Origin: a virus
Taxonomy: Duplodnaviria > Heunggongvirae > Uroviricota > Caudoviricetes
Strand: one strand, 5' to 3'
DNA length: 53,426 nucleotides
IMG/VR virus record: IMGVR_UViG_2541047798_000005
Part shown: one piece after another, positions 5,123-39,339 of the stretch
Position numbering within the stretch: position 1 is the first letter of the stretch
Layout: each line of letters starts with the position of its first letter
Position numbers and translations under genes: made by a program
Notes under the pieces: model-generated
What the model saw: only the letters and a program-made list of their open reading frames with translations
What the model was told of the DNA's origin: nothing
Database searches by the model: none

Positions 5123-6241
5123 TTACAAAATGGAATATTCAGGGTAATAAACAAAGCGCCCGATCTCACCATAATCCTGGCTGTAAATAATCACCGCTGC
5201 CATACGACGTGACCGCCAGCCGCCATTAGTTGAGTAAGCGTCTTTACCCGCTAACGTGCCGTGATACTCAACAACGCCTAACGATGATTCAATTAGCCGT
5301 TGATGATGCCAGTGCCCGCAATGAGCGTAAACCGCCGCAGACTTGCCAAAGTCTTCTCGCCAGTCAGAGACGCAGGCAGACAACAAATTTTCAGGTTTTT
5401 TGATAGTATGACCGTGATGATATGCAAGGAATGTTTTGCCGTACTGTGTGTGGTGGACGATAGCAGGGGACACATCAACAGTTACGCGCGGTTCATCTTC
5501 GTAAAAAGCCGCCAGCGCCGCACGTAGCCAAATCATGCCAGACTGATCGTGATTGCCTGATAGTACCTGGATTTCAATATCCTTATGATTTAACAACATC
5601 TTTCCTACCGCCCGACGTACCGCTCGGATCGCTACATAGACAAGTTTTGCATAGCGTGAATCGCAATCCAGTACGTGATTGCTTGATGGCGTAACTGGCA
5701 ACAGCCCGTCAGTGTGAAGAACATCCCCACCGAGAAGCAAAACAGCTTTTTCAGACATCGGCGCAGCGCCCACCGCGTAGTCAAAGAATTCATTCAACAC
5801 GCGTTCAGCGATCCCAGTGTCGTAGCTCTCGCCGCATTCAGCTTTATGAGCAAGCGCCCCGATATGCAGATCAAATACCGGATAAAGGGCCAGGCTTTTT
5901 TGAAAATCAATTTCAGGCACTGGCACGGCCTCCGCGCGTGGTATTTCTTCCGTGAATGCGTCGCGGGCAGCTTCCATTAGCCTTTCCATTTCATCACGGT
6001 CACGGGCAGTTTTAATCCAGCGCATGACCGTATTACCAGCCTTATCGACAAGAACAGATTCACCAGTAACGCCAAAACCAGGCGCGCGACGCGTTGATAT
6101 TAAACCGCGTTTCGCCAGTTTTGCGCCTAGCCGCTCGACGTTGCGTTTTGACATGCCATATTTTTCAGCGATCTGCTTGTACGTTAAACCGTTGTTATAT
6201 TCAGCGATCAATTGCTCATCGCTGATTTTTCTTTGCGACAT
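5123..6241 (-). CDS. N-terminal HTH domain fused to calcineurin-like metallophosphoesterase
   Basis: 372 aa; N-terminal HTH (LTYKQIAEKYGMSKRNVERL); phosphoesterase motifs DLHIG, GGDVLHTD, GNHD, HHGH, GHWHH. Confidence 0.6.
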   Translation of the reverse strand: MSQRKISDEQLIAEYNNGLTYKQIAEKYGMSKRNVERLGAKLAKRGLISTRRAPGFGVTGESVLVDKAGNTVMRWIKTARDRDEMERLMEAARDAFTEEIPRAEAVPVPEIDFQKSLALYPVFDLHIGALAHKAECGESYDTGIAERVLNEFFDYAVGAAPMSEKAVLLLGGDVLHTDGLLPVTPSSNHVLDCDSRYAKLVYVAIRAVRRAVGKMLLNHKDIEIQVLSGNHDQSGMIWLRAALAAFYEDEPRVTVDVSPAIVHHTQYGKTFLAYHHGHTIKKPENLLSACVSDWREDFGKSAAVYAHCGHWHHQRLIESSLGVVEYHGTLAGKDAYSTNGGWRSRRMAAVIIYSQDYGEIGRFVYYPEYSIL

Positions 6242-8990: not shown

Positions 8991-9638
8991 ATGAAAACAA
9001 AATGGTATGACTTAGCAAAGCAGCTCATGCGGGCGCAGGGCATGAGCCAGGATTCACTCGCGGATCGTATGGGGATAACTAAAGGCGGCCTGTCACACTG
9101 GCTGAACGGTCGCCGAGAGCCAAATCTTGAAGATATTGCGCGGATTATGCGCGAGCTTGGTCGTCGGCAGTTTACTGTTACACATGATGGCATGGTCATT
9201 GATGATTCTGTTTCTAATACACTTCAGGCCGTGCCGCCGCGTGATTTAGGTAGTTACCCGGTTATTGACTGGAAGGACACAGTAAACAATATGGATGACG
9301 CAAGGCGTTCAGCATTACGACACGTTACGACTAGCGTTATTTGTTCAGATGACAGTTACTGGCTGGTTGCCAAAGGTGAATCAATGAACGCGCCGCAGGG
9401 GTTGAGCATCCCGGCGGGGACGATGATACTTGTGGACCCGCACGCGCCAGCTATTGACGGCAAACTGGTTATAGCCCAGCTTGAGGAAGGGCAGATACCG
9501 ACGTTTAAACAGTTGATTATTGATGGAGGTCAAAGGCTTTTACGTTCGCTCAATCCGCTGTATCCGCCAATCCCTATGAATCCAGAATCAAAAATTATAG
9601 GCGTGGTGGTTGATGCGAAGATCGTAAACCTGCCATAA
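8991..9638 (+). CDS. cI: cI-like repressor (N-terminal HTH, C-terminal S24 LexA-like peptidase domain)
   Basis: 215 aa; HTH (GMSQDSLADRMGITKGGLSHWLNGRR); S24 motifs GESM and K-containing C-terminus; no RBS before ATG, consistent with a leaderless pRM-type transcript. Confidence 0.85.
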   Translation: MKTKWYDLAKQLMRAQGMSQDSLADRMGITKGGLSHWLNGRREPNLEDIARIMRELGRRQFTVTHDGMVIDDSVSNTLQAVPPRDLGSYPVIDWKDTVNNMDDARRSALRHVTTSVICSDDSYWLVAKGESMNAPQGLSIPAGTMILVDPHAPAIDGKLVIAQLEEGQIPTFKQLIIDGGQRLLRSLNPLYPPIPMNPESKIIGVVVDAKIVNLP

Positions 9639-9668: not shown

Positions 9669-9761
9669 GCCTGGAAAACACCAAAACGTAAACAGAAAAC
9701 GTTATTTATTATTTAAATATCAATGGCATATAAAATATTTTAAAAAAGTATACAAAATGGA

Positions 9762-10138: not shown

Positions 10139-10429
10139 ATGAGCGTTACAATTATATATGGTAAATGTGATAGCAAAATGAATGCCAGGGAACGCAGAAG
10201 GATAAAAAGAGAAAACGAAAGAAAATCATCACCTGCAATCAATAAAACAGACAATGTGGATAAAGCTATTCGATTTGCAAACGAGGAAAGATGCAAACCA
10301 AATAGCATTAAAGAACGTCGCAAAGGATCAGTAAAATGGTATACGGAAAATGAAAGCGGCAGCTACTACCACGCAACGCAACCACGCCATTTAGGGGAAA
10401 AACCCCTGGATAAAGTCCGCTACCATTAA
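10139..10429 (+). CDS. N-like transcription antitermination protein (arginine-rich motif)
   Basis: 96 aa; arginine-rich motif NARERRRIKRENERK near N-terminus, as in lambda/P22 N; first gene after pL/nutL-like elements. Confidence 0.55.
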   Translation: MSVTIIYGKCDSKMNARERRRIKRENERKSSPAINKTDNVDKAIRFANEERCKPNSIKERRKGSVKWYTENESGSYYHATQPRHLGEKPLDKVRYH

Positions 10430-15945: not shown

Positions 15946-16429
15946 CAGGTTATTAGCCTGCGTTTATGTCGCCGTTTTCGTTATCATCAATCTTATTGTT
16001 AACCACTGTGGCCCGTGGGTAATTCCGATCACCACGGTAGCCGCCGTGTGTGTCAATATGATGATTCGTGATTTTCTGTTATATGACGGCGGCCTTAAAT
16101 GGTCGGCTACAACATGCGCCGCCGCTGGCGCAATCACGGTGCTGATAAATTACGACGCCGGAATGGTGGCGATCGCGTCATTCGTCGCGGTTGTTTCCGG
16201 TGCGCTTATTTCTGGCGGCGTTTACCGGGTTTTACCTGGTGATTTCGATTCTAAACGCTGGCCTGCAAATATAGCGTCCGCCATTGGCGATGCGTTAATT
16301 TTCCCAACGCTATCGTTTATGGCATTCATGCCGGAAATATCAGCTATGCAATTCATCTCAAAAATGGCGGCGGTAACGGTGATCACTATCATCATGCGCC
16401 GCTACTTTACGTTCGAGGGTAGGAAATGA
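15926..16429 (+). CDS. Integral membrane protein, function unknown
   Basis: 167 aa, 4-5 predicted TM helices; GGAGG RBS. Confidence 0.5.
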   Translation: MKMVAIDRLLACVYVAVFVIINLIVNHCGPWVIPITTVAAVCVNMMIRDFLLYDGGLKWSATTCAAAGAITVLINYDAGMVAIASFVAVVSGALISGGVYRVLPGDFDSKRWPANIASAIGDALIFPTLSFMAFMPEISAMQFISKMAAVTVITIIMRRYFTFEGRK

Positions 16430-17190
16430 GTGGGCTTAGAAATTGGGTGGTGTGGTCGCTGTACGACGGCAGCGGATACGCCGTTAAAGATTGGGCCGAC
16501 GCTGGTTATAAATGCTATTGCTTCAACTATGATGGCGCTAATCACGGCGATTATGAAGGCGTCAAAATCATTCATCCGAACATTGAGTATATCAACGTAT
16601 GGATTGACAGCCATTTCCTGGTAATGTTCTCCCCTGAATTGTCTGTTTATCCAGATCCTGACATTATCCTGGGCTTTCCTCCGTGCGACGATCTTGCGGT
16701 GTCCGGCGCTCGCTGGTTTGCTGATAAGCGGAAAAAAGATCCTTACTTCCAGCAGAAGGCGGCATACAACGCAAAACTGGTAGAAACGCTTGCTGATATG
16801 TACCACGTCCCGTGGATGGTGGAAAATCCGGTAGGTGCGCTGTCAACGTTATGGCGCAAACCTGATTTTATCTTCAACCCGTGCGCTTACGGTGGCTACC
16901 TGCCTGAAGACGACAAACACCCTGCTTTCCCTGAATACATAGCTGCCCGCGACGCATACACGAAGAAAACTTGTATCTGGTGCGGGAATGGATTTAAGCA
17001 GCCGCTATTCCGGCCTGTACCTATGCCGGATGAATGGGAAGACAGCAAACAGCACGCGAAGTTAGGAGGAAAGTCGAAACGCACTAAGATGATCCGCTCA
17101 CTAACGCCGCGCGGCTTTGCCCGTGCTGTATTCCTGGCTAACGACCGGGCCATCACTCGTACTACGCTTAACCGCATTTTACCGGACTAA
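16426..17190 (+). CDS. DNA C5-cytosine methyltransferase-like protein with non-canonical PCD motif
   Basis: 254 aa; motif I-like SLYDGSG, motif IV-like GFPPCDDLAVSG (PCD instead of PCQ), motif VI-like MVENPVGAL; too short for a full target-recognition domain. Confidence 0.5.
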   Translation: MSGLRNWVVWSLYDGSGYAVKDWADAGYKCYCFNYDGANHGDYEGVKIIHPNIEYINVWIDSHFLVMFSPELSVYPDPDIILGFPPCDDLAVSGARWFADKRKKDPYFQQKAAYNAKLVETLADMYHVPWMVENPVGALSTLWRKPDFIFNPCAYGGYLPEDDKHPAFPEYIAARDAYTKKTCIWCGNGFKQPLFRPVPMPDEWEDSKQHAKLGGKSKRTKMIRSLTPRGFARAVFLANDRAITRTTLNRILPD

Positions 17191-17348
17191 AGTTTACAAA
17201 ATGGCATCATTGCGTGATGCGGATCACATAATGGCGCTTTTGCCTTGTTTGGTGGTATCCATTTTGTATACTTCAAGCAAACAAAATGCTCTTTAAAAAT
17301 CCGGCAGCGCTGAAATGCGTAGAAATCACCTGAAAAGGAGAGAGCATT

Positions 17349-17525
17349 ATGTCTTTTGATGATTACCAATGGCATGACGACTATGAACGAGAAAGCGTCA
17401 TGCGTGCAATGTGCAATGTATGCAGCACGAAAAAAGGAGAATGTAACGAGTACAACGAATGTGTAGATCACTCGCTAAGGGCCGGACACGCCGAAAGGCT
17501 GAACGAAACAGAGAATCAAAAATAA
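17349..17525 (+). CDS. Small Cys-containing hypothetical protein (58 aa)
   Basis: Not in ORF track; ATG with GGAGAG RBS; follows an inverted-repeat motif pair. Confidence 0.4.
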   Translation: MSFDDYQWHDDYERESVMRAMCNVCSTKKGECNEYNECVDHSLRAGHAERLNETENQK

Positions 17526-17539
17526 TTGGGGTGGTTTTT

Positions 17540-18145
17540 ATGCAAAACCCTAAGAAACCAATAAGACGCCGTTGCAAATGCTGCGGCGTTTTTTTTGAGC
17601 CTAAATATCACAATCAAACGTGGTGCAGCGACGAATGCCTGGAAGAACTGAAATTTGACCAGTTATGCCGCGACCGTGAGAAGGCTATGAAGGCTATGGA
17701 ACGGAAGAAACGCCGTGATAGCCAGCGGGAAGAACGCAACCGGAAGCGGAAGCAGTTAAATCCGCGTAGCTATTGGTTAAAGCAGGCACAAGCGGTATTT
17801 AATGCCTATATCCGCGAACGTGACGCGCGGTTGCCGTGCATATCCTGCGGGACTTACTACGGTGAGCAATGCGGATACGATGCGGGGCATTACAGGACGG
17901 TCGCCGCCGCCGGACACCTTCGCTTCAATGAAGATAACGTCCATAAACAATGTAGGCACTGCAATCAGACATTAGACGGAAACATACAAGCCTATCGCCC
18001 AGCACTGATTCGAAAAATTGGCCTCGCCAGGGTGGAAGCGCTGGAGAACAACAATGATACGCATAAATGGACGATCGCAGAATGTAAGGAGCTAATAAAC
18101 ATCTATCAGGCAAAATTGGACGCCTTAAGGAGAAAGGCAGCATGA
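17540..18145 (+). CDS. ninG: NinG/Rap recombination protein
   Basis: 201 aa; strong similarity to lambda NinG as recalled (RRCKCCG..F.P....Q.WCS.EC; RSYWLKQAQAVFNAYIRERD; HYRTVAAAGHLRFNEDNVHKQC). Confidence 0.85.
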   Translation: MQNPKKPIRRRCKCCGVFFEPKYHNQTWCSDECLEELKFDQLCRDREKAMKAMERKKRRDSQREERNRKRKQLNPRSYWLKQAQAVFNAYIRERDARLPCISCGTYYGEQCGYDAGHYRTVAAAGHLRFNEDNVHKQCRHCNQTLDGNIQAYRPALIRKIGLARVEALENNNDTHKWTIAECKELINIYQAKLDALRRKAA

Positions 18146-18549
18146 ACGAGTATACATTTAGCCTACCTTACCCGCCATCTAATAACCGATATTACCGACA
18201 TTCACGAGGTTTTCACTATATCAGCGAAGTGGGGAAGGAATACCGGGAACAAGTAAAAGACATCATCGAATTATTAAATTTAGACATTAACCTATCTTGC
18301 CGACTGGCAATCGCCATTTATGCCGCGCCGCCGGATAACCGGGTCAGAGATCTTGATAATATCCCAAAATGCCTTTTTGACAGCCTTACTTGTGCCGGAT
18401 TCTGGAATGATGATGGGCAAATCGACTCAATAAAAATTGTCCGCTGCCGGAAGGTAAAAGGCGGGCGATTGTTTATTAAGGTATGCGAACGCGGCGACCT
18501 GCTACCGGATATTAACGAATATGCGACTAATATGTGGGGTGAGCAATGA
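18142..18549 (+). CDS. rusA: RusA-family Holliday junction resolvase
   Basis: 135 aa; LPYPPSNNRYYRH...RDLDN...FWNDD... pattern matching E. coli RusA. Confidence 0.85.
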   Translation: MNEYTFSLPYPPSNNRYYRHSRGFHYISEVGKEYREQVKDIIELLNLDINLSCRLAIAIYAAPPDNRVRDLDNIPKCLFDSLTCAGFWNDDGQIDSIKIVRCRKVKGGRLFIKVCERGDLLPDINEYATNMWGEQ

Positions 18550-18728
18550 AAAACGAAATTAAAGATCTGCAAATAGATGTTCAACGTGACGAGCATGATT
18601 TAGCGACAGTCAGACGAATCCAGGCTTTTCACATGCAGGAATTACTTGCGCTGAAAGAGCTTGAAAGAAAACTGGTGCAAACCATTTCTGATCGCAAACG
18701 CCTTATTGCTCGCTATGGGGGCAAATAA
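18546..18728 (+). CDS. Hypothetical protein
   Basis: 60 aa ORF, translationally coupled. Confidence 0.4.
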   Translation: MKNEIKDLQIDVQRDEHDLATVRRIQAFHMQELLALKELERKLVQTISDRKRLIARYGGK

Positions 18729-19456
18729 TGAATTTAGAATCCATTCTGAAATTCCACTTTCCCAAATCACCGCGATTATCAGACGAAAGCCGGGGAACAT
18801 CCCCGGATGCACTTAATACGACGGATGCGCTTACCGCCGCTGGTATGGCGCAATCGCGCGTAGAGCTTGGCTATAGTGCTTTTTTAGGGAAAATGGAGCT
18901 ATCGCAAGCTGAAAAACACAGGGCCGTAATTTTGCTTACAGAGCGTTTAAGGGTTATGGCGAAAGATTACGAATACGTGATGGAATTAAATGAAGAACAA
19001 CGCAATGATCTTATTATTCTTGTTGCCGTTTTCGCGTTTCGGGATTACTGCCAAAGTGCGGCTACCGAAAAGGTTTGCCCTAAGTGCGGAGGTAACGGGC
19101 TTTTACCGAATCCATATTGTGAATACACATCGACAGTTTGCTCGCGGTGCAACGGCAAAGGCTACGTTAAAAACCATTGCCAGAGGTGCAAGGGGCGTGG
19201 CGAAGTACCGGATAAAGCAGCCAGCGAAGCGGCGGAAATGCCAGTATTCAAAACGTGCCAGCACTGCGGCGGGCGCGGGTACTCGCGTTTCCCTGTAGAT
19301 CTCGTCCGGCAGGCCGTTAACCAGCTTGTTTTCCCGGTAAGCAGATCAACATGGTGGAAGAAATACCGGGTTTTCTATGAAGACGCCATAGCGGAGCTAT
19401 TCAAAGAAGAGGCCCGCGCGGAAAGCGAAATTAAACGAGTGACACGGGGTGAATAA
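18728..19456 (+). CDS. Q: Late-gene antiterminator Q (lambda type)
   Basis: 242 aa; N-terminus MNLESILKFHFPKSPRLSDESRG...AAGMAQS closely parallels lambda Q MRLESVAKFHSPKSPMMSD...; Cys clusters (zinc finger). Confidence 0.85.
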   Translation: MNLESILKFHFPKSPRLSDESRGTSPDALNTTDALTAAGMAQSRVELGYSAFLGKMELSQAEKHRAVILLTERLRVMAKDYEYVMELNEEQRNDLIILVAVFAFRDYCQSAATEKVCPKCGGNGLLPNPYCEYTSTVCSRCNGKGYVKNHCQRCKGRGEVPDKAASEAAEMPVFKTCQHCGGRGYSRFPVDLVRQAVNQLVFPVSRSTWWKKYRVFYEDAIAELFKEEARAESEIKRVTRGE

Positions 19457-19659
19457 TGGACAAGTTAGAAATAAACGATCAGTTTGCCGTTATCTTGTTC
19501 GAAGATAAAACGGGCGGCGCGTGGTGTAAGAAAGTAACTGGTGCAGAAGCGCGATTGATATTGGGTATGGCAAGCGCATTAAACGAAGGCGAATTGCCAG
19601 CCGTACCTATTGAGCCTGTTCACATTTACGGGAGGAATAGAGAAGATGAAAATAATTAA
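19456..19659 (+). CDS. Hypothetical protein
   Basis: 67 aa ORF. Confidence 0.4.
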   Translation: MDKLEINDQFAVILFEDKTGGAWCKKVTGAEARLILGMASALNEGELPAVPIEPVHIYGRNREDENN

Positions 19660-19993
19660 TATCGGGTGGTTATATTGCGAAAACTGCGACGACGACGGCA
19701 TGGTTGTTAAGACTGAAAAAGGTTGCGGCTTCTTTTTGTATCAAGGCGATAAGTTTGTTTGTCCGCGATGCGGTGGTCATGGTGAGATAGAAATTATTGA
19801 AGATAGTGCTACAGCACCAGAGCCGGAGCGCATTGTTCTTGACGAAAAAATAAAAATTCATCCTGATTTATTGCAGCAAATTATCGATCACATATCGGCA
19901 GCAGCAATCTATGCAGATAATAATTATCATCGTAAAATGAACGTAAAACGTGTTCTTGAGCAGTATTTCGAGGGTGGTGATAATGAAGCCTAA
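19648..19993 (+). CDS. Zinc-ribbon hypothetical protein
   Basis: 114 aa from ATG at 19648 with GGGAGG RBS; CENC...CPRCGG motif. Confidence 0.45.
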
Positions 19994-20252
19994 ATTAAAA
20001 GAACATGAATTCAGGGATCTTGTAAACGGAATAACTGATAAGTCCAGGACTTATTCAAATACACAACAATTAAGGGCTGTGATAGTTACTGAATTAAGGA
20101 AATATATAGACCTAAGAGATCCGGTCGATGTTATGACGATGGACGAGGCCATCAAGCGCCGTTCGGCTGAATGGTCAGTGAGTAATACCGGATTAACCGG
20201 ATATATTGAAGGCTATAACGACTGTTTACAGGATCATAGCGATGGCAAGTAA
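19983..20252 (+). CDS. Hypothetical protein
   Basis: 89 aa from ATG at 19983. Confidence 0.4.
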   Translation: MKPKLKEHEFRDLVNGITDKSRTYSNTQQLRAVIVTELRKYIDLRDPVDVMTMDEAIKRRSAEWSVSNTGLTGYIEGYNDCLQDHSDGK

Positions 20253-20550
20253 AGACCTGCATTTGAATCTGAAAGGGGAATACTTCCACGCCATCCGGGC
20301 GGGAAAGAAGGTGGAAGAATACAGGCTTTACAATGACTATTGGCGTAAACGCCTGGAGGGGCGGGAATATGAACGCCTGATCATTAAGCTGGGGTATCCA
20401 GCCAGCCACGAAGCGCACCGGATCATAAACCTGCCTTATTTCGGGTACGAAGTAAAAACTATCACGCATCCATTATTCGGCCCTGATCCTGTTAAGGTAT
20501 TCGCAATTAAATGTGATGTGAATTGGATGTTAAGGTGGGGTGAGCAATGA
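20242..20550 (+). CDS. ASCH-domain-like protein
   Basis: 102 aa; LKGEYFHAIRAGKKVEEYR pattern resembling ASCH (PUA-like) domains. Confidence 0.45.
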   Translation: MASKDLHLNLKGEYFHAIRAGKKVEEYRLYNDYWRKRLEGREYERLIIKLGYPASHEAHRIINLPYFGYEVKTITHPLFGPDPVKVFAIKCDVNWMLRWGEQ

Positions 20551-20762
20551 AAAAAGCTGGCCTGTCAATCAGTCGTGTGTTGTGCGGCGACGAAAGCGAG
20601 ATCCGCATAGAAATTAAATTTAGCACGGGTAAAGAGATAATTCTCTATACGACACCTGAAAACCTGACGCTGGCGCTTACTGGTAAATCTGAAACGCCGT
20701 GCGACGTCCGGTTGCGCAATATTGAGATTAAGGAAATAGGAAGGGTGAGAAATGAAAAGTAA
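20547..20762 (+). CDS. Hypothetical protein
   Basis: 71 aa ORF. Confidence 0.35.
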   Translation: MKKAGLSISRVLCGDESEIRIEIKFSTGKEIILYTTPENLTLALTGKSETPCDVRLRNIEIKEIGRVRNEK

Positions 20763-20964
20763 CCGTAAACGCCTGGTAAGGTCATATGACAAAGCGTTAA
20801 AGGTTTTTGATGATCTGCGACACAATAAACGCCAGCGCCGCAAATGGGCGCGAATGCTTGTTGGTGAATGGCATAACGAAGATTTCTTTCTGGAAGCGCG
20901 GCACATGACGCAAGAAGACGCGGACCAATTAGCTTACGATAACGTTTATTATATGATGTGGTGA
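20752..20964 (+). CDS. Hypothetical protein
   Basis: 70 aa ORF. Confidence 0.35.
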   Translation: MKSNRKRLVRSYDKALKVFDDLRHNKRQRRKWARMLVGEWHNEDFFLEARHMTQEDADQLAYDNVYYMMW

Positions 20965-20968
20965 CAAT

Positions 20969-21334
20969 ATGCAAATAATCCTTGATTACCTTTGCCACGC
21001 TGCAAATACAATTTTTGGCATGTATCAGCAACAATTCCTCAAAGAATGGGACGACATGCTGAATGATATCCTCGATAAAGGATTAATAATGGAGGTTGAC
21101 GAGCTTACAATCAAATTTAATTATGAGGGTGAAATTTATCTAATTTGGGTCGGGAATAGATGGTATTCATACGGTCATATTTATTCAATTGGCGATAAAT
21201 ACATTAAACGAAGCCAGGAATTCAGACCGCGCTTCCGAACAATGCGCCGCCTGCATGATCTGCATATGAAGTTATTCGAAGATCAGGAAGCACGGGAATT
21301 ATTCAAAATTTACGGGGATAAATCATGGAGCTAA
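20969..21334 (+). CDS. Hypothetical protein
   Basis: 121 aa ORF. Confidence 0.4.
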   Translation: MQIILDYLCHAANTIFGMYQQQFLKEWDDMLNDILDKGLIMEVDELTIKFNYEGEIYLIWVGNRWYSYGHIYSIGDKYIKRSQEFRPRFRTMRRLHDLHMKLFEDQEARELFKIYGDKSWS

Positions 21335-21555
21335 AAATCTGGCAGGCTATCGACGTGGTTGATAACGAATTATCTATGTTTGCCACTGACGGAAAGCGCG
21401 TGGTGATCGCCACATGGACGCGCAACCATGATGATATTGCTTTTCGTCGCAAGGCGGCGGAATGGCTTTTCTCTGATGGCGGCTACACGATGAACATCGC
21501 ACAGCTTGCCAGAATGAAAGATGAAAAGCTGGTGGACAGCTACACAACTGCGTAA
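21325..21555 (+). CDS. Hypothetical protein
   Basis: 76 aa ORF. Confidence 0.35.
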   Translation: MELKIWQAIDVVDNELSMFATDGKRVVIATWTRNHDDIAFRRKAAEWLFSDGGYTMNIAQLARMKDEKLVDSYTTA

Positions 21556-21565
21556 CGGGGTAAAT

Positions 21566-21799
21566 ATGCGTATCTATGAACACAAGCGGGATAAAACCCG
21601 CTTTTTTGTTCGTGCTGGCGTGGCGTACCAGTATCACGAATGCGGTTACATTGAGGCGCTTGCTTACGATCTGGACTTCGAGCAAGAAAAGGAATGGTTC
21701 GATTTTAAAATTTACCGTAAGCGCAAACCAACGCGCGACGAGCGCCACGCTATCCGTGACTTTTTAATCAGCATTGAGCGTTGGGGGACAGAAGAATGA
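21566..21799 (+). CDS. Hypothetical protein
   Basis: 77 aa from ATG at 21566. Confidence 0.35.
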   Translation: MRIYEHKRDKTRFFVRAGVAYQYHECGYIEALAYDLDFEQEKEWFDFKIYRKRKPTRDERHAIRDFLISIERWGTEE

Positions 21800-22074
21800 G
21801 AACAAAGAAAACAGCAGATCAGAAAGCGTTAGTTATCGCTACAACGGATGTATCGTTATTTACGAAGGGTGAAGAGATAGATCTTAAATTGCTTTTCGGA
21901 ATGTTTGAGCCACACGAAAAGCCGTGGTTCGTACATGAAGATAAACAAGGCAATATGCGCGTAGTAGTACCTGACAGTAAAAGCGATATATTTTTTGGTG
22001 TTCCAGATCCGTTACATGACGGTGAAATGCTGGCGGTATTGTTGATCTCTGATGCTGTTACTTATAAGGGGTAA
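21796..22074 (+). CDS. Hypothetical protein
   Basis: 92 aa from ATG at 21796. Confidence 0.35.
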   Translation: MRTKKTADQKALVIATTDVSLFTKGEEIDLKLLFGMFEPHEKPWFVHEDKQGNMRVVVPDSKSDIFFGVPDPLHDGEMLAVLLISDAVTYKG

Positions 22075-22076
22075 AG

Positions 22077-22304
22077 ATGAAAGTAAAATTCTTGCACGAT
22101 CACGGTTATCCGTCATTGAAACAGGTTGTTGGTAAGGTCGTTAATGTCGTTCATAGCGATGATGTCACTTGCATGATTAACGGTGCTGATTTAATCGCCG
22201 CTGGCGCTGATGACCATTACATCAATCCTGCCTGGTCGTATACGTTCAGCCTGGGCGACTTCGTTGGCGACAAGGGGCGCGGGCTGGAAGTAGTCGAGGG
22301 TTAA
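22077..22304 (+). CDS. Hypothetical protein
   Basis: 75 aa ORF. Confidence 0.35.
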   Translation: MKVKFLHDHGYPSLKQVVGKVVNVVHSDDVTCMINGADLIAAGADDHYINPAWSYTFSLGDFVGDKGRGLEVVEG

Positions 22305-22308
22305 CATC

Positions 22309-22557
22309 ATGGACGTTTACGAAGATCTATACCTTCAGACGAATACCCACACTTTTTATTTTTTGAAAAACGGCGTTGTATATCGCAGTGACGACGGGAT
22401 GGTAATGAAGGAGTGGTTATTTAAGCGTAAAGACCTACTCGACGATCTGGTTTTTGCCGGGATATTTCGTAAACGTCCGGCTAACCTGGAAGAAGAAATG
22501 TTGATTGAGGTAATTGAAAATGAAAATCAGGGTAAGTTATTTCCGGGCGAAAGATAA
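22309..22557 (+). CDS. Hypothetical protein
   Basis: 82 aa ORF. Confidence 0.35.
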   Translation: MDVYEDLYLQTNTHTFYFLKNGVVYRSDDGMVMKEWLFKRKDLLDDLVFAGIFRKRPANLEEEMLIEVIENENQGKLFPGER

Positions 22558-22771
22558 GGCAACAGGAAAGCAGATGGCGATCCTGGTTAACGAGGCCAAT
22601 TATATGTTTGTGCTTCAGCCGTGGTGCATAGCTGACTATAACGATGATTATCGCCGTCACGGTGCGCGGGGTGCTGTTGGTATGAAAGGCTGGCAACCGC
22701 GCGACATGGGAAACTATTGTGAATGGAAATTGGTGGCAAAATACACGGTAGACTATAAAGGGGTTTTCTGA
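22520..22771 (+). CDS. Hypothetical protein
   Basis: 83 aa from ATG at 22520 with GAGG RBS. Confidence 0.35.
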   Translation: MKIRVSYFRAKDKATGKQMAILVNEANYMFVLQPWCIADYNDDYRRHGARGAVGMKGWQPRDMGNYCEWKLVAKYTVDYKGVF

Positions 22772-22773
22772 TT

Positions 22774-22989
22774 ATGTTTGCAAGATGCGTTTACTCTGAC
22801 ACTGCGTGCTTTACTGTTGGTGAATTATATAGCGTTGATCTTCTTAACGGGTGCAAGCGCGGCGCTGGCAGGATTCATTATGTAAAAGATAATGATGGTG
22901 ATGCGTGGCAATTTTACGGCGATCATGCGAAAGGGGTTGTTAAGGGTAGTTTTGATAATCGTGTAATGGCGCATTTTGTTAAGTGGTGA
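22774..22989 (+). CDS. Hypothetical protein
   Basis: 71 aa ORF. Confidence 0.35.
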   Translation: MFARCVYSDTACFTVGELYSVDLLNGCKRGAGRIHYVKDNDGDAWQFYGDHAKGVVKGSFDNRVMAHFVKW

Positions 22990-23030
22990 GGTGTTGGACA
23001 ACCATAAATGTGATCTGTATCACAATGTAT

Positions 23031-23064
23031 ACGAAATGGCATTGTTTCGACAGTGCCATTTTGT
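23031..23064. promoter_or_regulatory. Inverted repeat ACGAAATGGCA-N12-TGCCATTTTGT (variant of the recurrent motif) upstream of the 23104 ORF
   Basis: 11-bp arms with one mismatch; followed by TTATATATAAG (-10-like). Confidence 0.4.
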
Positions 23065-23103
23065 TATATATAAGCCACGAAAAGGCGGAGGGGAGGCAAG
23101 AAA

Positions 23104-23244
23104 ATGAACGCTAACGCTAAATATCCGGCATGGGTTTTTGAGTTATATGCCCGCTACTTTGAATTGCTGGCACCAGGTGAAGAAGCATTAAGCATTGACG
23201 AATACGCGGAGTGTTTGGGGTTCAAAGGAGGCAAAGAAGGATAA
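23104..23244 (+). CDS. Small hypothetical protein (46 aa)
   Basis: Not in ORF track; ATG with GGAGG RBS. Confidence 0.35.
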   Translation: MNANAKYPAWVFELYARYFELLAPGEEALSIDEYAECLGFKGGKEG

Positions 23245-23287
23245 AGCACGGTGTCGGATGGCTCCATCAAACCAGAAGGGTTGAATC

Positions 23288-23587
23288 ATGAAAAGCGATA
23301 AATTCATTGCGTGCTGTTTTGTTGAAGTGCCTAAAGGTGATGTTTTCTGTAATTACGAATTTAAAGACAGTTTAGGCCGATCTCATGTTGTTGTTGGTAA
23401 GCGCGGCGACTGGTTATATATCACTGATGGAGACAGGATCTTCACTAAAAACCAGTTGTTAAGAATAAAGGCAGAAAATAATGAAATACCAGTAGGTAAT
23501 ATGGGGATCATGAATTATCACGCCTGCCTATGTTTAAAGCATGATGCGGTGAATAAAGCGCGTAGCTTACCTGGTGCTGAATTTTAA
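23288..23587 (+). CDS. Hypothetical protein
   Basis: 99 aa ORF. Confidence 0.4.
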   Translation: MKSDKFIACCFVEVPKGDVFCNYEFKDSLGRSHVVVGKRGDWLYITDGDRIFTKNQLLRIKAENNEIPVGNMGIMNYHACLCLKHDAVNKARSLPGAEF

Positions 23588-23610
23588 TTTATTACGAAGG
23601 AGAATAGCAA

Positions 23611-23934
23611 GTGTCTAAATTTATCAGCGTTAAGGTTTTCCGTGGCACTTTTCCAGAAGATGAAAAAATCGGACAATTCGCCGGACAACCTGGCGCATGT
23701 TTCCGTGTAGCCACTGATGACGAAGCTAACGTCAAGTGCTTCCATGTATCTGAACCTCCTTTTGACGTGAAACACCTTGACGATGCAAATCACGTTAAAC
23801 ATTTTGTTTTCGCATCTGTGGTGCTCAATCCTTGCCCTGATGCTGAAGTGGAATTGCTTGGGGCTAAACTGGTTGCGGAATATAAAATGACTGAAGGAGA
23901 AGAAGGGGGAATTAAAATTGAGCGCATCAAATAA
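23611..23934 (+). CDS. Hypothetical protein
   Basis: 107 aa, GTG start with GAAGGAG RBS. Confidence 0.4.
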   Translation: MSKFISVKVFRGTFPEDEKIGQFAGQPGACFRVATDDEANVKCFHVSEPPFDVKHLDDANHVKHFVFASVVLNPCPDAEVELLGAKLVAEYKMTEGEEGGIKIERIK

Positions 23935-24172
23935 GCTGTATAAAGTCAGGTGTAAAGGCGAATACCCTGGCTTTACGGTTGGTTGCGAATACCTGGGCCA
24001 CATTGGGTACGGTCCTTTCGGTGAGTTGGGGATGAATACAATGGACGACGACGGCGATAGCCGGACGCTTGATCTTGATTCAGATGATTTCGAATACATC
24101 CCGCCAGTAACTTGCCGCATAGTTGATGACTTCCTGGCTGAACATGAAGACGAGGACGATGATGATGATTGA
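23918..24172 (+). CDS. Acidic hypothetical protein
   Basis: 84 aa, non-ATG start; poly-Asp C-terminus. Confidence 0.3.
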   Translation: MSASNKLYKVRCKGEYPGFTVGCEYLGHIGYGPFGELGMNTMDDDGDSRTLDLDSDDFEYIPPVTCRIVDDFLAEHEDEDDDDD

Positions 24173-24365
24173 GTGCCTTATAGCTGTGATTGTTCTGCTT
24201 TATATCGCTGGTGCGATCCTGATGTCGTGTTTTATTAAATTTAGCGGCGCTGAACCTGGTGGCCTTGAGATTCCTTTATGGCCTGTAGTGATATTTCTCG
24301 CTTTCTTCGATGCTACGGTAGTGCAGATCAAGCGAGCCATTAAGGAGCGCAAAAATGGGAAATAG
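24159..24365 (+). CDS. Small membrane protein (start ambiguous)
   Basis: About 68 aa with 2 predicted TM segments. Confidence 0.3.
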   Translation: MMMIECLIAVIVLLYIAGAILMSCFIKFSGAEPGGLEIPLWPVVIFLAFFDATVVQIKRAIKERKNGK

Positions 24366-24579
24366 CGACCATCAATATGACGGTGTTTATCAGTCATTGG
24401 CTTCACGCGCCTATTATCGCCTTGAAGGTGAACACGTAATGATGCGATTGCGCCAGTTTGATCCGTGGCATGAACCGTTTTTAACTATGACATCTGCGGA
24501 GGTCATCACGATGTTTAATCACGGATACTGGCGCAAGATTGGCGATATTAAGTTCAGGATGTTTAAAGATGGCAGCTAA
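24355..24579 (+). CDS. Small protein, paralog family member A
   Basis: 74 aa; shares DGVY...Y.LEGE.VMMR motif with the next two ORFs. Confidence 0.45.
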   Translation: MGNSDHQYDGVYQSLASRAYYRLEGEHVMMRLRQFDPWHEPFLTMTSAEVITMFNHGYWRKIGDIKFRMFKDGS

Positions 24580-24744
24580 ATGATTGAAGATGGCGTGTAC
24601 GCAGCAACAGTAGTAGACAGGTTGTTTTACCGCGTAGAAGGTGATGATATTCGCATTCGCGTTGGCGGTGGTGAGTGGGTAGCGCCAATCATTAGGACTA
24701 CGCGAGAAACAATCAAATATTTCTTGATGCTGGTGAACTGGTGA
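24580..24744 (+). CDS. Small protein, paralog family member B
   Basis: 54 aa, not in ORF track; MIEDGVYAATVVDRLFYRVEGDDIRIR. Confidence 0.4.
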   Translation: MIEDGVYAATVVDRLFYRVEGDDIRIRVGGGEWVAPIIRTTRETIKYFLMLVNW

Positions 24745-24757
24745 GGGTTAGCGATCT

Positions 24758-24934
24758 ATGAACGAGATCGAAGACGGCATCTATTTGCATAAGGTATTTA
24801 ACATCGCTTATTTGGTTAGAGGTGAATCGGTGATGATAAGACCTGATGATGTTCCTTATTGGGAATTAAGCGACATGGATCGGTGGCATATGCAAACATT
24901 GCTTGATAATGGCCTGATATATAGAAAGCCGTAA
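24758..24934 (+). CDS. Small protein, paralog family member C
   Basis: 58 aa, not in ORF track; MNEIEDGIYLHKVFNIAYLVRGESVMIR; GAGGG RBS. Confidence 0.4.
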   Translation: MNEIEDGIYLHKVFNIAYLVRGESVMIRPDDVPYWELSDMDRWHMQTLLDNGLIYRKP

Positions 24935-24942
24935 AGCCGTAT

Positions 24943-24971
24943 TTGTAGGTCGCAAACAAACAGATTAAAAT
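24943..24971 (+). promoter_or_regulatory. pR'-like late promoter (TTGTAG-17-TAAAAT) with -10-like pause element just downstream
   Basis: Reasonable sigma70 promoter immediately upstream of a terminator and the lysis cassette, mirroring lambda pR'/tR'. Confidence 0.45.
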
Positions 24972-24998
24972 ATTACCTAACAATGCGAAACTGTAACT

Positions 24999-25024
24999 AC
25001 CCGGCCACGTGCCGGGTTTTTGCT
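24999..25024 (+). terminator. tR'-like rho-independent terminator upstream of holin
   Basis: CCCGGC-cacgt-GCCGGG hairpin followed by TTTTT. Confidence 0.6.
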
Positions 25025-25041
25025 TTGTTGGAGGTAAATCT

Positions 25042-25242
25042 ATGTTCGACAGAATACGGGAGGCGTGTGCATATGTGACTGGTGCAGTAACCGCTTTTTT
25101 CGGTGCTATAACCATCAATGACGTTGCAGTGTTCGTTGGTATCTTATCAACCATAGGCACATTTGCCGTTAACTATTACTTCAAATCACAGGAGAACAAA
25201 AGGGCGCAAGAGGAACACGACGCACGAATGGGGAATAAGTAA
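25042..25242 (+). CDS. Holin (class II / pinholin-like)
   Basis: 66 aa from ATG at 25042 (GGAGG RBS); two TM segments and charged C-terminus, resembling phage 21 S21. Confidence 0.7.
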   Translation: MFDRIREACAYVTGAVTAFFGAITINDVAVFVGILSTIGTFAVNYYFKSQENKRAQEEHDARMGNK

Positions 25243-25734
25243 ATGATTAGCCAATCGCTGAAAAACAAGATTGTTGCGGCGGCGGCTGGTGGGGCGATCG
25301 CTATTGCGGCGGTGATGATTAAGCCATTAGAGGGCGTTGAGTACGATCCGTATCGTGATGTTGTCGGTGTATGGACTGTTTGCCACGGTCACACCGGAAA
25401 AGACATCATGCTTGGCAAGACTTACACGCAATCGGAATGCGATGCTTTGTTAAATAAAGATCTACACAAAACCGCAAAAGCGATTGACCCATATATCAAA
25501 GTCGAAATATCAGATTTTACCCGCGCTGCACTTTATTCATTCGCCTATAACGTAGGCGCAACCAACTTCAAAACATCAACCTTATTAAAACTACTCAATG
25601 ACGGCAAGAAATCAGAGGCGTGCGCACAGCTTAAACGCTGGGTATACGCTGGCGGTAAGAAGTGGCAAGGGTTAGTTAACCGCCGCGATGTTGAATATGC
25701 CGTTTGCGAATGGGGTGAAACATGGACAAGGTGA
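25243..25734 (+). CDS. SAR endolysin (GH24 lysozyme with N-terminal signal-anchor-release segment)
   Basis: 163 aa; hydrophobic Gly/Ala-rich N-terminus followed by lysozyme catalytic region (E...D...T). Confidence 0.8.
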
Positions 25735-26192
25735 AGACGTTAATCATCGCCGTTGTTGTTTGCATTATTGCCGGGCTTGCTGCCGTAACGTGCTATTACC
25801 AGGGTGAAACGGCAAGGTTGCAGGAAGAAGTCACGGTGACGAAAGGCGCACTGAAAACAGCAAGTAACACTATTCAGCAGATGAAGGAGCGAAACGCAGA
25901 ACTGTCAAAACTTGATAAGAGGTATCACGATGAAATTAAAGCTATCAGATCTGACATTGCCGATCTGCGCACTGGCATTGATAACGGCACTATCAGGCTG
26001 CGCGTCAACGCAATACCCGTGCGAGTGTCCGACTCCGCCGAATCCGCCAGCCGCATTGATGGAGCCTCCTGTAGACTCACTCCCGACGCTGAATCGGCTT
26101 ATCTATCCCTCAGAGAACAACTAAAAACGAAAGACGCTCAGATTACTGGTCTTCAGGACTACATCAAAACTCAGTGCTTACGCAAAGAATAA
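25722..26192 (+). CDS. Rz: i-spanin (Rz)
   Basis: 156 aa; N-terminal TM, coiled-coil periplasmic domain; overlaps endolysin end. Confidence 0.8.
25930..26124 (+). CDS. Rz1: o-spanin (Rz1) lipoprotein embedded in Rz in the +1 frame
   Basis: 64 aa from ATG at 25930 (AGAGG RBS); lipobox LSGC; proline-rich mature region. Confidence 0.8.
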   Translation: MKLKLSDLTLPICALALITALSGCASTQYPCECPTPPNPPAALMEPPVDSLPTLNRLIYPSENN

Positions 26193-26470
26193 CAGCGCGT
26201 GGACGTGTCGCCGTTTCTGCCAGCCAGCCATAACCGGGCCAATCCTTCCCGCGAGCGACGGCGGAAATTCAAAAACACGTAATACCGGATCAACAGTCCC
26301 ATTAACAGGTCAGGCGCTACCTGGGTAGAAGAAAGCGCCACCCACCTATTTTATAAAATTCTGAAAACGGTACTCATGCAGCGCCGTTTTTAGTGTTTTA
26401 TAGCTGTTTTCACTCCCTGCGGTGTCGAGTTTTGCGGGGGTTATATTTTTCAGAATAGGAGATTATTCTG

Positions 26471-27013
26471 ATGGCTAAGGCTAAAGGCATTAAGTTGCCT
26501 CACTTCAAGATCCCGCTTTTTGAGCATACCACTGTTTTCTTTTGCCCGACCCGCGAGATGTTCTATGAATTTTGCGAAAAGGCAGGAATTCCGATTGAAC
26601 CTGATTTCGAGTTGGCTGGAGGATTAACGCTTACTTGCACTGGCGAGAATGGTGGTAACTTCTACGTGATCGCAGTATTCAACAATGAGTTGGGAACGCT
26701 GGTCCATGAATGCGCCCACACTACATTCCACGTTTTAAGTGATGTAGGCGTCGTGGCTACCACGGTTCCTACCCATCCGGCGAATGAGACTTACGCTTAC
26801 ATGGTAGACCGTATCTTCGATGCGTTTTTCCCTATCATAGCAGAATCAAACGAAGCACAGGTTGCAGCAATGCAGGCGGCAGAAGTCGTCGATCAGGCGC
26901 TGGAACAGGCAGAACAGCCGAAGGAAGAGGAAAAACCCGCGAAGAAAGGCAAACGTAAGCCCAAAGCAAAAGAAGCGTATGTGCCGCGCGTAATGAGCTT
27001 TAAACGAGGCTGA
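26471..27013 (+). CDS. Hypothetical protein with HExxH-like motif and Lys-rich C-terminal tail
   Basis: 180 aa; LVHECAHTTFH; C-terminus QPKEEEKPAKKGKRKPKAKE; AGGAG RBS. Confidence 0.5.
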   Translation: MAKAKGIKLPHFKIPLFEHTTVFFCPTREMFYEFCEKAGIPIEPDFELAGGLTLTCTGENGGNFYVIAVFNNELGTLVHECAHTTFHVLSDVGVVATTVPTHPANETYAYMVDRIFDAFFPIIAESNEAQVAAMQAAEVVDQALEQAEQPKEEEKPAKKGKRKPKAKEAYVPRVMSFKRG

Positions 27014-27015
27014 TT

Positions 27016-27105
27016 ATGATTGCGTCAATATTAACGTTTATGGGTGGCGTGGCGTTCGGGTTCATTATTTGCCTGTTTATGGTGATTATGTCTATGCGAG
27101 GCTGA
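27016..27105 (+). CDS. Tiny hydrophobic peptide 1 (29 aa)
   Basis: MIASILTFMGGVAFGFIICLFMVIMSMRG; own RBS (GAGGCTGATTATG, repeated at the next ORF). Confidence 0.4.
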   Translation: MIASILTFMGGVAFGFIICLFMVIMSMRG

Positions 27106-27107
27106 TT

Positions 27108-27203
27108 ATGGACGCTTACATCATCGCCGGATTAATTGGTATTTCTGTATTTCTGGTGAGTTTTGTTATTGCCGTACTGATAACCGTAAAAAGCAAGTAT
27201 TAG
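27108..27203 (+). CDS. Tiny hydrophobic peptide 2 (31 aa)
   Basis: MDAYIIAGLIGISVFLVSFVIAVLITVKSKY; same RBS-start motif as peptide 1. Confidence 0.4.
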   Translation: MDAYIIAGLIGISVFLVSFVIAVLITVKSKY

Positions 27204-27216
27204 ATGGGGTGGCAAG

Positions 27217-27291
27217 ATGATTGACCCGCTAATTATCCTTTCTGCCTGCGTCGCTGTATGGCTGGCGATCATGATATTCATTGAAAGCTGA
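27217..27291 (+). CDS. Tiny hydrophobic peptide 3 (24 aa)
   Basis: MIDPLIILSACVAVWLAIMIFIES. Confidence 0.35.
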   Translation: MIDPLIILSACVAVWLAIMIFIES

Positions 27292-27302
27292 AGGTATCCA
27301 CA

Positions 27303-27383
27303 ATGAACGCATACGAAATGCTATTGCTGGTGGCTGTAGTTGTGGTTATTGCTGTGGACGTATACCGGGAGATGAAAAAATGA
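27303..27383 (+). CDS. Tiny hydrophobic peptide 4 (26 aa)
   Basis: MNAYEMLLLVAVVVVIAVDVYREMKK; AAGG RBS. Confidence 0.35.
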   Translation: MNAYEMLLLVAVVVVIAVDVYREMKK

Positions 27384-27448
27384 AATGGCTTGATTTCTTT
27401 TTCCTGATCGTTGCGATTGTTTTTACCATGATCGCGTTAACTCAATAG
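27380..27448 (+). CDS. Tiny hydrophobic peptide 5 (22 aa)
   Basis: MKWLDFFFLIVAIVFTMIALTQ; ATGA overlap with peptide 4. Confidence 0.35.
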   Translation: MKWLDFFFLIVAIVFTMIALTQ

Positions 27449-27456
27449 GTGAACGC

Positions 27457-27531
27457 ATGAATGCTATTGATATTATGTTGATCGTGTGTACCGTTGCGTT
27501 AATTATTATTGGGGTGATTATCAATGTCTGA
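27457..27531 (+). CDS. Tiny hydrophobic peptide 6 (24 aa)
   Basis: MNAIDIMLIVCTVALIIIGVIINV; AGGTG RBS. Confidence 0.35.
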   Translation: MNAIDIMLIVCTVALIIIGVIINV

Positions 27532-39258: not shown

Positions 39259-39300
39259 TTATACAAAATGGAGTCGTTGAAGTAAAGCCATTTTGTATAA
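39259..39300. promoter_or_regulatory. Perfect 13-bp inverted repeat TTATACAAAATGG-N16-CCATTTTGTATAA; candidate divergent promoter/operator
   Basis: Each arm ends in a TATAA(A/G) -10-like hexamer facing outward toward the tape measure gene (+) and the lipoprotein genes (-). Confidence 0.5.
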
Positions 39301-39339
39301 AATAGATACACAGATCACATTTTTGCATGAGGTTAAATC

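Follow-up and report, generated by a model that had tools for sequence, protein, structure and literature searches.

A lambda-family Q gene set apart from its candidate late regulatory site by a hypervariable gene block in an mEp021-type temperate coliphage

The regulatory cassette of the Q antiterminators is described as a Q gene together with the adjacent pR' transcription unit (PMC9388147), and a Q gene that stands several kilobases (kb) from anything resembling pR' raises the question of where its product acts. Such a gene lies at 18728-19456 on the + strand of IMG/VR virus record IMGVR_UViG_2541047798_000005 (Duplodnaviria; Heunggongvirae; Uroviricota; Caudoviricetes), a stretch of 53,426 nucleotides (nt) that was analysed as a whole and is called the window here. 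A preliminary description of this DNA had noticed a lambda-type Q about 5.5 kb upstream of the only element resembling pR' and its terminator tR', just before the holin gene, and had left two alternatives: either Q acts at a distant site, or an unrecognised pR' lies near Q and all the genes between are late-expressed cargo. The first is the better supported of the two, by the layout of the distal element and by its conservation in the phage family to which the window belongs, and no pR' was found near Q. We consider it moderately probable that the distal element is the late regulatory site, that Q acts there, and that the intervening block is an accessory region of the early operon.

The family membership of the protein is well established. 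The product of the open reading frame (ORF) 18728-19456, 242 amino acids long, matches Pfam family PF03589 with 108 bits (cut-off 26.7) and aligns over its full length with the structure of lambda Q (PDB 7UBM, E 7.9e-37; residues 1-114 and 150-240). The label "lambda-type" was correct, because PF03589 is named the Q-lambda family in PMC9388147, beside PF06530 for Q21 and PF06323 for Q82. In an alignment of six sequences, among them the Q proteins of lambda, P22, ST104 and 640R1, the N-terminal segment (lambda residues 1-44) is conserved, with M1, L3, E4, K8, P12-P15, D19, G39, M40 and others invariant; in lambda Q this segment refolds into the RNA-exit torus (PMC9388147). The four zinc-ribbon cysteines of the window Q (C151, C154, C177 and C180) are invariant in the same alignment. 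Residues ~115-149 are an insertion carrying a second CxxC...CxxC pair, a zinc knuckle of the CxxCxGxG type, in the arm through which lambda Q contacts DNA and sigma region 4; its sequence differs between the two subtypes of the family (242 and 240 amino acids), the DNA element being unchanged. Comparable or longer arm insertions are found in the nearest Q relatives outside the family, ST104 gene 23, ES18 gp73 and 640R1 Q (35-39% identity).

The site on which this Q would act is found immediately before the holin gene, on the + strand. It opens with TTGTAG (24943-24948), a weak -35-like hexamer with 3/6 matches to TTGACA, followed by a 17-nt spacer whose last part is the near-invariant 12-nt block AAACAAACAGAT (24954-24965), directly beside TAAAAT (24966-24971), the -10 hexamer of the putative late promoter, which has 5/6 matches and is invariant in all relatives. 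After ATTACCT comes a second -10-like sequence, AACAAT (24979-24984, ~+1 to +6), 7 nt after the -10, invariant in the family and a candidate sigma70-dependent pause element; then an intrinsic terminator detected by the scan (24999-25024, ~+21 to +46), the equivalent of tR', with a 7-base-pair G+C stem (24999-25017) and T5; and finally a Shine-Dalgarno sequence and the holin ATG. The hairpin alone folds with -13 kcal/mol and the whole 52-nt leader with -20.7 kcal/mol (z -4.1), and a terminator before the holin is annotated in mEp021 (TERM_5), mEp010, mEp013 and mEp044. The coordinates, the TTGTAG-17-TAAAAT arrangement, the hairpin and the position before the holin thus hold as first described, with the ATG at 25042, rather than the GTG at 25009, as the start of the holin. 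A transcription start near 24979 would give a terminated RNA of ~45 nt and put a pause near +16 immediately ahead of the terminator hairpin.

The lambda Q-binding element lies between the -35 and the -10, which is also where the 12-nt block sits in the window; its consensus, AAACAAAYRGAT, holds across 29 variants of the element with one single-base exception, and we treat it as the candidate Q-binding element although it has no similarity to the lambda sequence. At lambda pR' itself the order is TAAATT-6-AACGAT, and the AACGAT at +1 to +6 induces the sigma70-dependent +16 pause that Q needs (PMC4005639). The motif "-10, 5-7 nt, AAC[AG]NT" is found 13 times in the window, against 14 expected by chance, and on both strands of the whole 53-kb window only the copy at 24966 precedes a terminator. 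To judge from the letters, 24943-25024 is the only combination of a -10 (TAAAAT), a pause element and a terminator in the window.

Conservation of the element was followed through the phages related to the window. Positions 18000-26200 are 88-92% identical, over 52-84% of their length, to mEp010, MagusPhagus, mEp044, mEp013, mEp554, mEp021 and mEp515, and the gene order is common to the window and the annotated mEp021-type genomes (mEp021, mEp010, MagusPhagus, mEp013, mEp044, mEp554); on this nucleotide identity and synteny the window is assigned to the published mEpimmI (mEp021-type) group, Nus-dependent, non-lambdoid temperate coliphages described in 2025 (PMC11893012). The element occurs in 38 IMG/VR contigs and in sequenced phages, and together with the holin in 32 of 5426 complete E. 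coli genomes. Its 29 distinct variants (56 loci) show no change, or almost none, in the core, which extends from AAACAAAYRGAT over the -10 and AACAATGCGAAA as far as the hairpin, and this holds whichever of three different genes stands before it. In MagusPhagus (L003, 8920-9000) and in three further variants (L012, L021 and L043) the sequence upstream of AAACAAA differs (…CATAATCGCGCATAAAAAACAAATAGATTAAAAT) and no -35 can be recognised; MagusPhagus is nonetheless an isolated, viable phage.

The separation seen in the window recurs throughout the family. From the Q stop to the -35 of the element there are 5487 nt and 22 genes in the window, as the figure of about 5.5 kb implied; in the 32 family loci that hold both Q and the element the distance runs from 1927 to 6725 nt, with 25 distinct distances and as many distinct block lengths, and 8-25 genes intervene. 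In 12 of 13 fully sampled family loci the ORF after Q overlaps the Q stop. That Q normally adjoins the late promoter, as the preliminary description had stated, was confirmed in two outgroup samples. The first comprised 70 loci of the Q-lambda family (Q identity 34-41%): in 69 of them a -10 and a pause element (AACGAT, AACACT, AACAGT or AATGAT) lie 37-77 nt after the Q stop, 6 nt apart in 60 loci, 7 nt in 7 and 5 nt in 2, and where the IMG/VR outgroup loci include downstream DNA (66 loci), a strong terminator follows no more than 170 nt from the Q stop in 59. The second comprised 60 prophage loci from many enterobacterial genera, where a gap of at least 30 nt follows Q in 56/58 and a terminator lies within 300 nt in 45/60. 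A Photorhabdus locus (L161) considered as an exception was rejected, the cassette being present when read by eye; in a Mangrovibacter locus (L160) the ORF overlapping the Q stop looks spurious, reverse-strand and antirepressor-like genes stand between Q and the lysis genes, and inspection did not locate the late site. Over the two samples, about 130 loci in all, promoter, pause element and terminator nearly always begin 36-78 nt beyond Q. Across the loci compared, the separation of Q from the late site is a family-wide trait and an unusual one among lambda-family Q loci.

Between the two halves lies a block of 22 small, packed or overlapping genes (19456-24934, + strand), a hypervariable accessory region of function-unknown genes. 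As had been described, about 22 small ORFs follow Q without a gap: the Q stop (19454-19456) overlaps the next ATG (TAATG), and twenty-two + strand ORFs of 46-121 amino acids, mostly overlapping or a few bases apart, fill the space up to 24934. From Q to the holin only two gaps exceed 50 nt, at 22990-23103 (114 nt) and 24935-25041. The ORFs are real genes, because substitutions among family members concentrate on the third codon position (3042/1954/8077 at positions 1/2/3), with the same bias in every ORF. PHROG families were found for 18 of the 20 block ORFs tested, none with a known function for the block, and the block ORFs gave no Pfam match above cut-off and no PADLOC match. The protein called ASCH-like does have a Pfam match of that kind, but a sub-threshold one (E 0.021, with 16 bits where the cut-off is 21). 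The three tandem paralogs reported at the end of the block are three small ORFs in 24355-24934 (74, 54 and 58 amino acids) that share the motif DG(V/I)Y…Y.(V/L).G…(I/M)R; identity is just 34-38%, and on the shared motif they are probable paralogs. The number of tandem copies varies among relatives.

Two terminator-like hairpins lie within the block, so that, contrary to the preliminary description, the pre-holin terminator is not the first after Q. One (21584-21609, + strand), followed by T6, is inside the ORF 21566-21799 (scan; -16.7 kcal/mol, z -6.2), and an ARNold terminator, T9, is annotated inside the corresponding ORF of mEp554. The other (23026-23070, + strand), with an 11-base-pair stem and a U-rich tail (-22 kcal/mol, z -6.0), stands in the mid-block gap; terminators are annotated at the equivalent position in mEp010, mEp044 and mEp554, and it is probably an internal terminator. 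A polymerase that reads the block must resist termination, because of these two hairpins.

A possible source of such resistance is described for this phage group. PMC11893012 reports for mEp021 an N-like antiterminator, Gp17, three nut sites called nutR1, nutR2 and nutL, and terminators t1-t5, with nutR2, the third nut site, after a methyltransferase gene and just upstream of ninG. Upstream of Q the window has a NinG/Rap-like gene, part of the early right operon (17459-18145, + strand; Pfam PF05766, E 1e-66; annotated NinG/Rap in relatives), then a gene for a RusA-type Holliday junction resolvase (18142-18549, + strand; Pfam PF05866, E 1e-14). An arginine-rich ORF of 96 amino acids (10139-10429; …ARERRRIKRENERK…) that follows a CI-like repressor gene (8991-9638, + strand) is probably Gp17, and the positions of these two place pR near 9.76 kb, ~15 kb upstream of the pre-holin terminator.

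The course of events that we propose joins these parts. Q (18728-19456) would be made from a long early rightward operon running from pR through nutR1, gp17, further genes, nutR2, ninG, rusA and Q into the block, which would be co-transcribed and translationally coupled with Q; the block would not be late cargo but a hypervariable set of accessory genes, placed distally in the early operon. Polymerase made termination-resistant by Gp17, loaded at nutR2 upstream of ninG, would read the block, which would explain its passage of the two internal hairpins; for unmodified polymerase the early operon would end at the pre-holin terminator. Q would diffuse in trans to 24943-25024, 5.5 kb downstream, where we infer a late promoter with the -10 TAAAAT, a weak -35 and AAACAAAYRGAT as the candidate element for Q binding. 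Polymerase starting there would pause at about +16 through the AACAAT element and Q would load on it; without Q, the terminator at 24999-25024 would end the ~45-nt RNA just before the holin. Neither this terminator nor the one that follows the lysis genes would stop Q-modified polymerase, which would carry transcription on into the lysis and structural genes.

Several observations weigh against this course of events. The description of the element as the first convincing promoter plus terminator stands for the whole combination, which is the sole one of its kind, but not for the promoter alone, which is not above chance: the -35 has three matches in six and a consensus scan did not list the site. 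The -35 reads TTGTRG in most variants but ATCGCG in 4/29, those of the viable MagusPhagus included. The pause element stands 7 nt from the -10, where 60/69 outgroup loci have a distance of 6 nt, and an nhmmer profile of the outgroup pR' regions, run against the window, gave no significant match and placed 24970-24994 only third, at E 3.9. When 17185-17355 was compared with all other parts of the window for similarity, nutR2 was not identified, and what emerged instead was the repeated 9-mer described below; the read-through of the block terminators by Gp17 is assumed. Within the block, 22309-22557 (+ strand), by synteny and ORF length and the MH706966 annotation, is the counterpart of mEp021 gp41, an 82-amino-acid protein annotated as a virion structural protein and found in purified virions, as would be expected rather of a late gene; neither Pfam nor PHROG gave a match for it. 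PMC11893012 reports that the genes of two virion proteins lie upstream of the lysis region and likens the one that is not an SSB to a RegA-like RNA-binding protein. In the literature, as far as accessible, no transcription data for the late region of family members were found.

One further proposal is compatible with this course of events: that the distal third of the block (23104-24934) also has its own CRP-dependent promoter within 22990-23103 and can be expressed independently, for example from a prophage. This is possible but unlikely. In the mid-block gap the perfect CRP-consensus palindrome TGTGATCTGTATCACA (23009-23024, read from the sequence), whose left half AAATGTGATCT matches at 11/11 positions, is followed by TTGTTT-17-TATATA, which would centre the site near -61, and exact TGTGA-N6-TCACA is kept in 10 other family loci. 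The palindrome belongs to a 71-nt non-coding core (23005-23075) that is matched in 28 family loci even though the neighbouring genes vary; a partial second copy (39263-39325, - strand) lies in the intergenic space between divergent genes. The conserved T at the end of the -10, however, is absent, the strong terminator-like hairpin forms in this very DNA, and the palindrome could instead bind a phage protein; the core could serve to terminate transcription within the block, to drive 23104-24934 as a CRP-dependent promoter, or to do both. As an alternative pR' the gap was rejected, since it has no -10 plus AAC..T arrangement.

Less probable still is that the pre-holin element is just a terminator (t5) ending the early operon, perhaps with an incidental weak promoter, so that the late genes would be reached by Gp17 read-through and Q would be dispensable or act elsewhere. 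The weak and unconserved -35, the promoter that the scan did not call and the non-significant outgroup profile match all fit this, and PMC11893012 lists t5, in a legend, among the experimentally shown terminators of the N-like system, although it is not certain that t5 is the pre-holin terminator. A mere terminator, however, would not need the -10, the 12-nt block upstream of it and AACAAT, whose invariance reaches well past the hairpin; the layout matches that of the outgroup pR' sites; and Q is present in every family member with all its conserved functional segments. We judge this explanation quite improbable.

Q might also load without any dedicated promoter: polymerase from the early operon would take up sigma70 from solution, pause at TAAAAT or AACAAT and be modified by Q there. 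It has been reported that sigma70 can join elongating polymerase in trans, with pausing at -10-like elements in vivo (PMC4604602), no terminator stands between the last block gene and the element, and the -35 is missing in the MagusPhagus-type subset. Against this, the TTG at -35 is kept with its 17-nt spacer in most variants, and every Q protein studied loads onto paused complexes close to the promoter, whose short RNA threads into Q (PMC9388147), in a way that a long nascent RNA would not follow. For the family as a whole we give this very little credence, and no more to a version restricted to the MagusPhagus-like subtype, in which the absence of a -35 would mean that there is no autonomous promoter and that Q loads on early-operon polymerase after sigma70 has joined in trans and caused pausing at TAAAAT/AACAAT. 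Promoter-independent loading in mid-operon, if true, would explain why Q need not adjoin a promoter.

The other alternative raised at the outset, in which a hidden Q-dependent late promoter would coincide with the end of Q or follow it closely, with the whole block as late cargo and the pre-holin element as a secondary signal, could account for the passage of the internal hairpins, which Q-modified polymerase would also pass, and for the gene matching the mEp021 virion-associated protein, but is highly improbable: the overlap of the Q stop with the next start codon leaves no non-coding space, the scan found no + strand promoter-like site between 18000 and 19894, and no combination of -10, pause element and terminator was found in the last 130 nt of Q or just after it, while in six aligned family members near-identity extends up to GGGGTGAATAATG, which holds a Shine-Dalgarno sequence, the Q stop and the next start, and homology ends exactly at the stop codon, beyond which mEp021 and mEp044 carry different genes, so that a conserved cis site just after Q is excluded.

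Seen beside known systems, the proposed late site of the window agrees with the late cassettes of lambda and P22 in the Q protein family, in the -10 followed some 6-7 nt on by a -10-like AAC..T, in a terminator shortly after (at +30 to +58 in P22) and in the lysis genes as first genes of the late operon. It differs from them in the distance, ~40-80 nt from Q there against 5.5 kb here (1.9-6.7 kb in the family), in the weak -35, the 7-nt rather than 6-nt pause spacing and the unrelated presumed Q-binding sequence, and in the extra zinc knuckle of its Q. The closest Q relatives outside the family, those of the P22-like phages of ST104/ES18 type (~255 amino acids, 36-39% identity), share the arm insertion with extra CxxC pairs, and the ST104 pR', TATCAT-AACCCT-AACAGT, resembles TAAAAT-ATTACCT-AACAAT of the window, but the ST104 promoter starts ~30 nt and its terminator ~125 nt after Q. 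The window shares with the mEpimmI phages of PMC11893012 the gene order and the pre-holin element; the N-like Gp17 and the nut sites are described there. Variable accessory genes between Q and the holin are also known from Stx-type and other lambdoid phages, and the block had been said to occupy the place where Stx phages carry their toxin genes. The parallel misleads, since that cargo is Q-dependent and lies downstream of pR'/tR', whereas the block lies upstream of the pR'-like site; in vB_EcoS-640R1, the first 100 nt after Q already hold promoter, pause element and terminator, and a tRNA and ORFs follow. A better likeness is the nin region of lambda, which also consists of small, packed, mosaic accessory genes in the distal, antitermination-dependent part of the early operon, NinG and RusA being encoded just upstream here; the nin genes, however, precede Q, the last early gene, whereas most accessory genes of the window follow it.

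The origin of the arrangement is not traceable, because only Q relatives of at most 41% identity were found: neither in IMG/VR nor in the species-representative genomes was any found between 41% and 85%, and in the latter the scan with Q alone gave no match and that with the alignment only such distant relatives. Q genes equal in length and score to that of lambda itself (621 nt, 33% identity to the query) were also met in unrelated genomes, among them Oceanobacillus, Shewanella, Bradyrhizobium and Kitasatospora (L182-L200), on short contigs, where they are most likely lambda DNA contaminating the assemblies.

What makes a Q switch of this kind of interest is that a preference of lambda Q for acting in cis has been reported (Echols et al., 1976; Burt and Brammar, 1982, both as cited in PMC5303824) and that adjacency is treated as part of the cassette; the uncoupling matters for these two reasons. 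In the mEpimmI group, the halves of a lambda-type Q switch would be uncoupled by a hypervariable gene island throughout a prevalent, little-studied phage group, whose prevalence in human gut samples is reported in PMC11893012 to equal that of lambdoid phages. The same paper characterises early (Gp17) antitermination and mentions "Q-like" proteins in passing, and in its accessible part no description of the late promoter, of the position of Q or of the separation between Q and late site was found. The group offers a natural system in which to ask whether proximity matters for Q function and lysis timing, and a compact candidate late site of ~80 nt for the late regulation of its phages. On a milder reading, an island between Q and its site would give the island genes the timing of Q and weaken the reported cis preference. 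The island, fast-evolving and with 8-25 small function-unknown genes that would be expressed with Q, is a place to look for host-takeover or anti-defence functions; and should the distal site not respond to Q, late control in the mEpimmI group would differ from that of lambda.

Downstream of the element, the first gene is that of the holin (25042-25242, + strand; Pfam PF16080, the HP1-family holin, E 6.7e-15), followed by a lysozyme or endolysin gene (25243-25734, + strand), whose homologue is annotated "lysozyme R" or endolysin in relatives, and by an Rz-like spanin gene (25722-26192, + strand) with an embedded Rz1-like lipoprotein ORF (25912-26124), as read from the ORFs and the Rz-like spanin annotation in MagusPhagus. 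After the lysis cassette there is a terminator-like hairpin with T5 (26361-26391, + strand; -13.5 kcal/mol, z -3.8), TERM_6 of mEp021, which forms part of a weaker look-alike of the pre-holin site at 26351-26391 (TAAAAT, 6 nt, AACGGT, hairpin). As a second Q site this was rejected, since the AACGGT lies within the terminator stem, there is neither a TTG at -35 nor a AAACAAAYRGAT block, and the upstream sequence is unrelated; it is probably a mere terminator, to be read through by late transcription toward the terminase genes. An Rfam scan of 16000-27500, with E up to 1, gave no match.

The window also holds a repeated 9-mer, ACAAAATGG/CCATTTTGT, in 15 copies against 0.9 expected, about half of them outside ORFs of at least 80 amino acids (positions 5125, 8909, 8997, 9752, 17196, 17259, 23056, 31190, 35141, 39263, 39288, 41876, 42267, 43860 and 51305). 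Inverted pairs are formed at 17196/17259, 23031/23056 and 39263/39288; copies flank the CI-like repressor gene, and the one at 9752 stands just upstream of a rightward promoter, TTGACT-17-TATATT. Half of an operator site, a stem common to several terminators and a small repeated element are all possible identities of the 9-mer.

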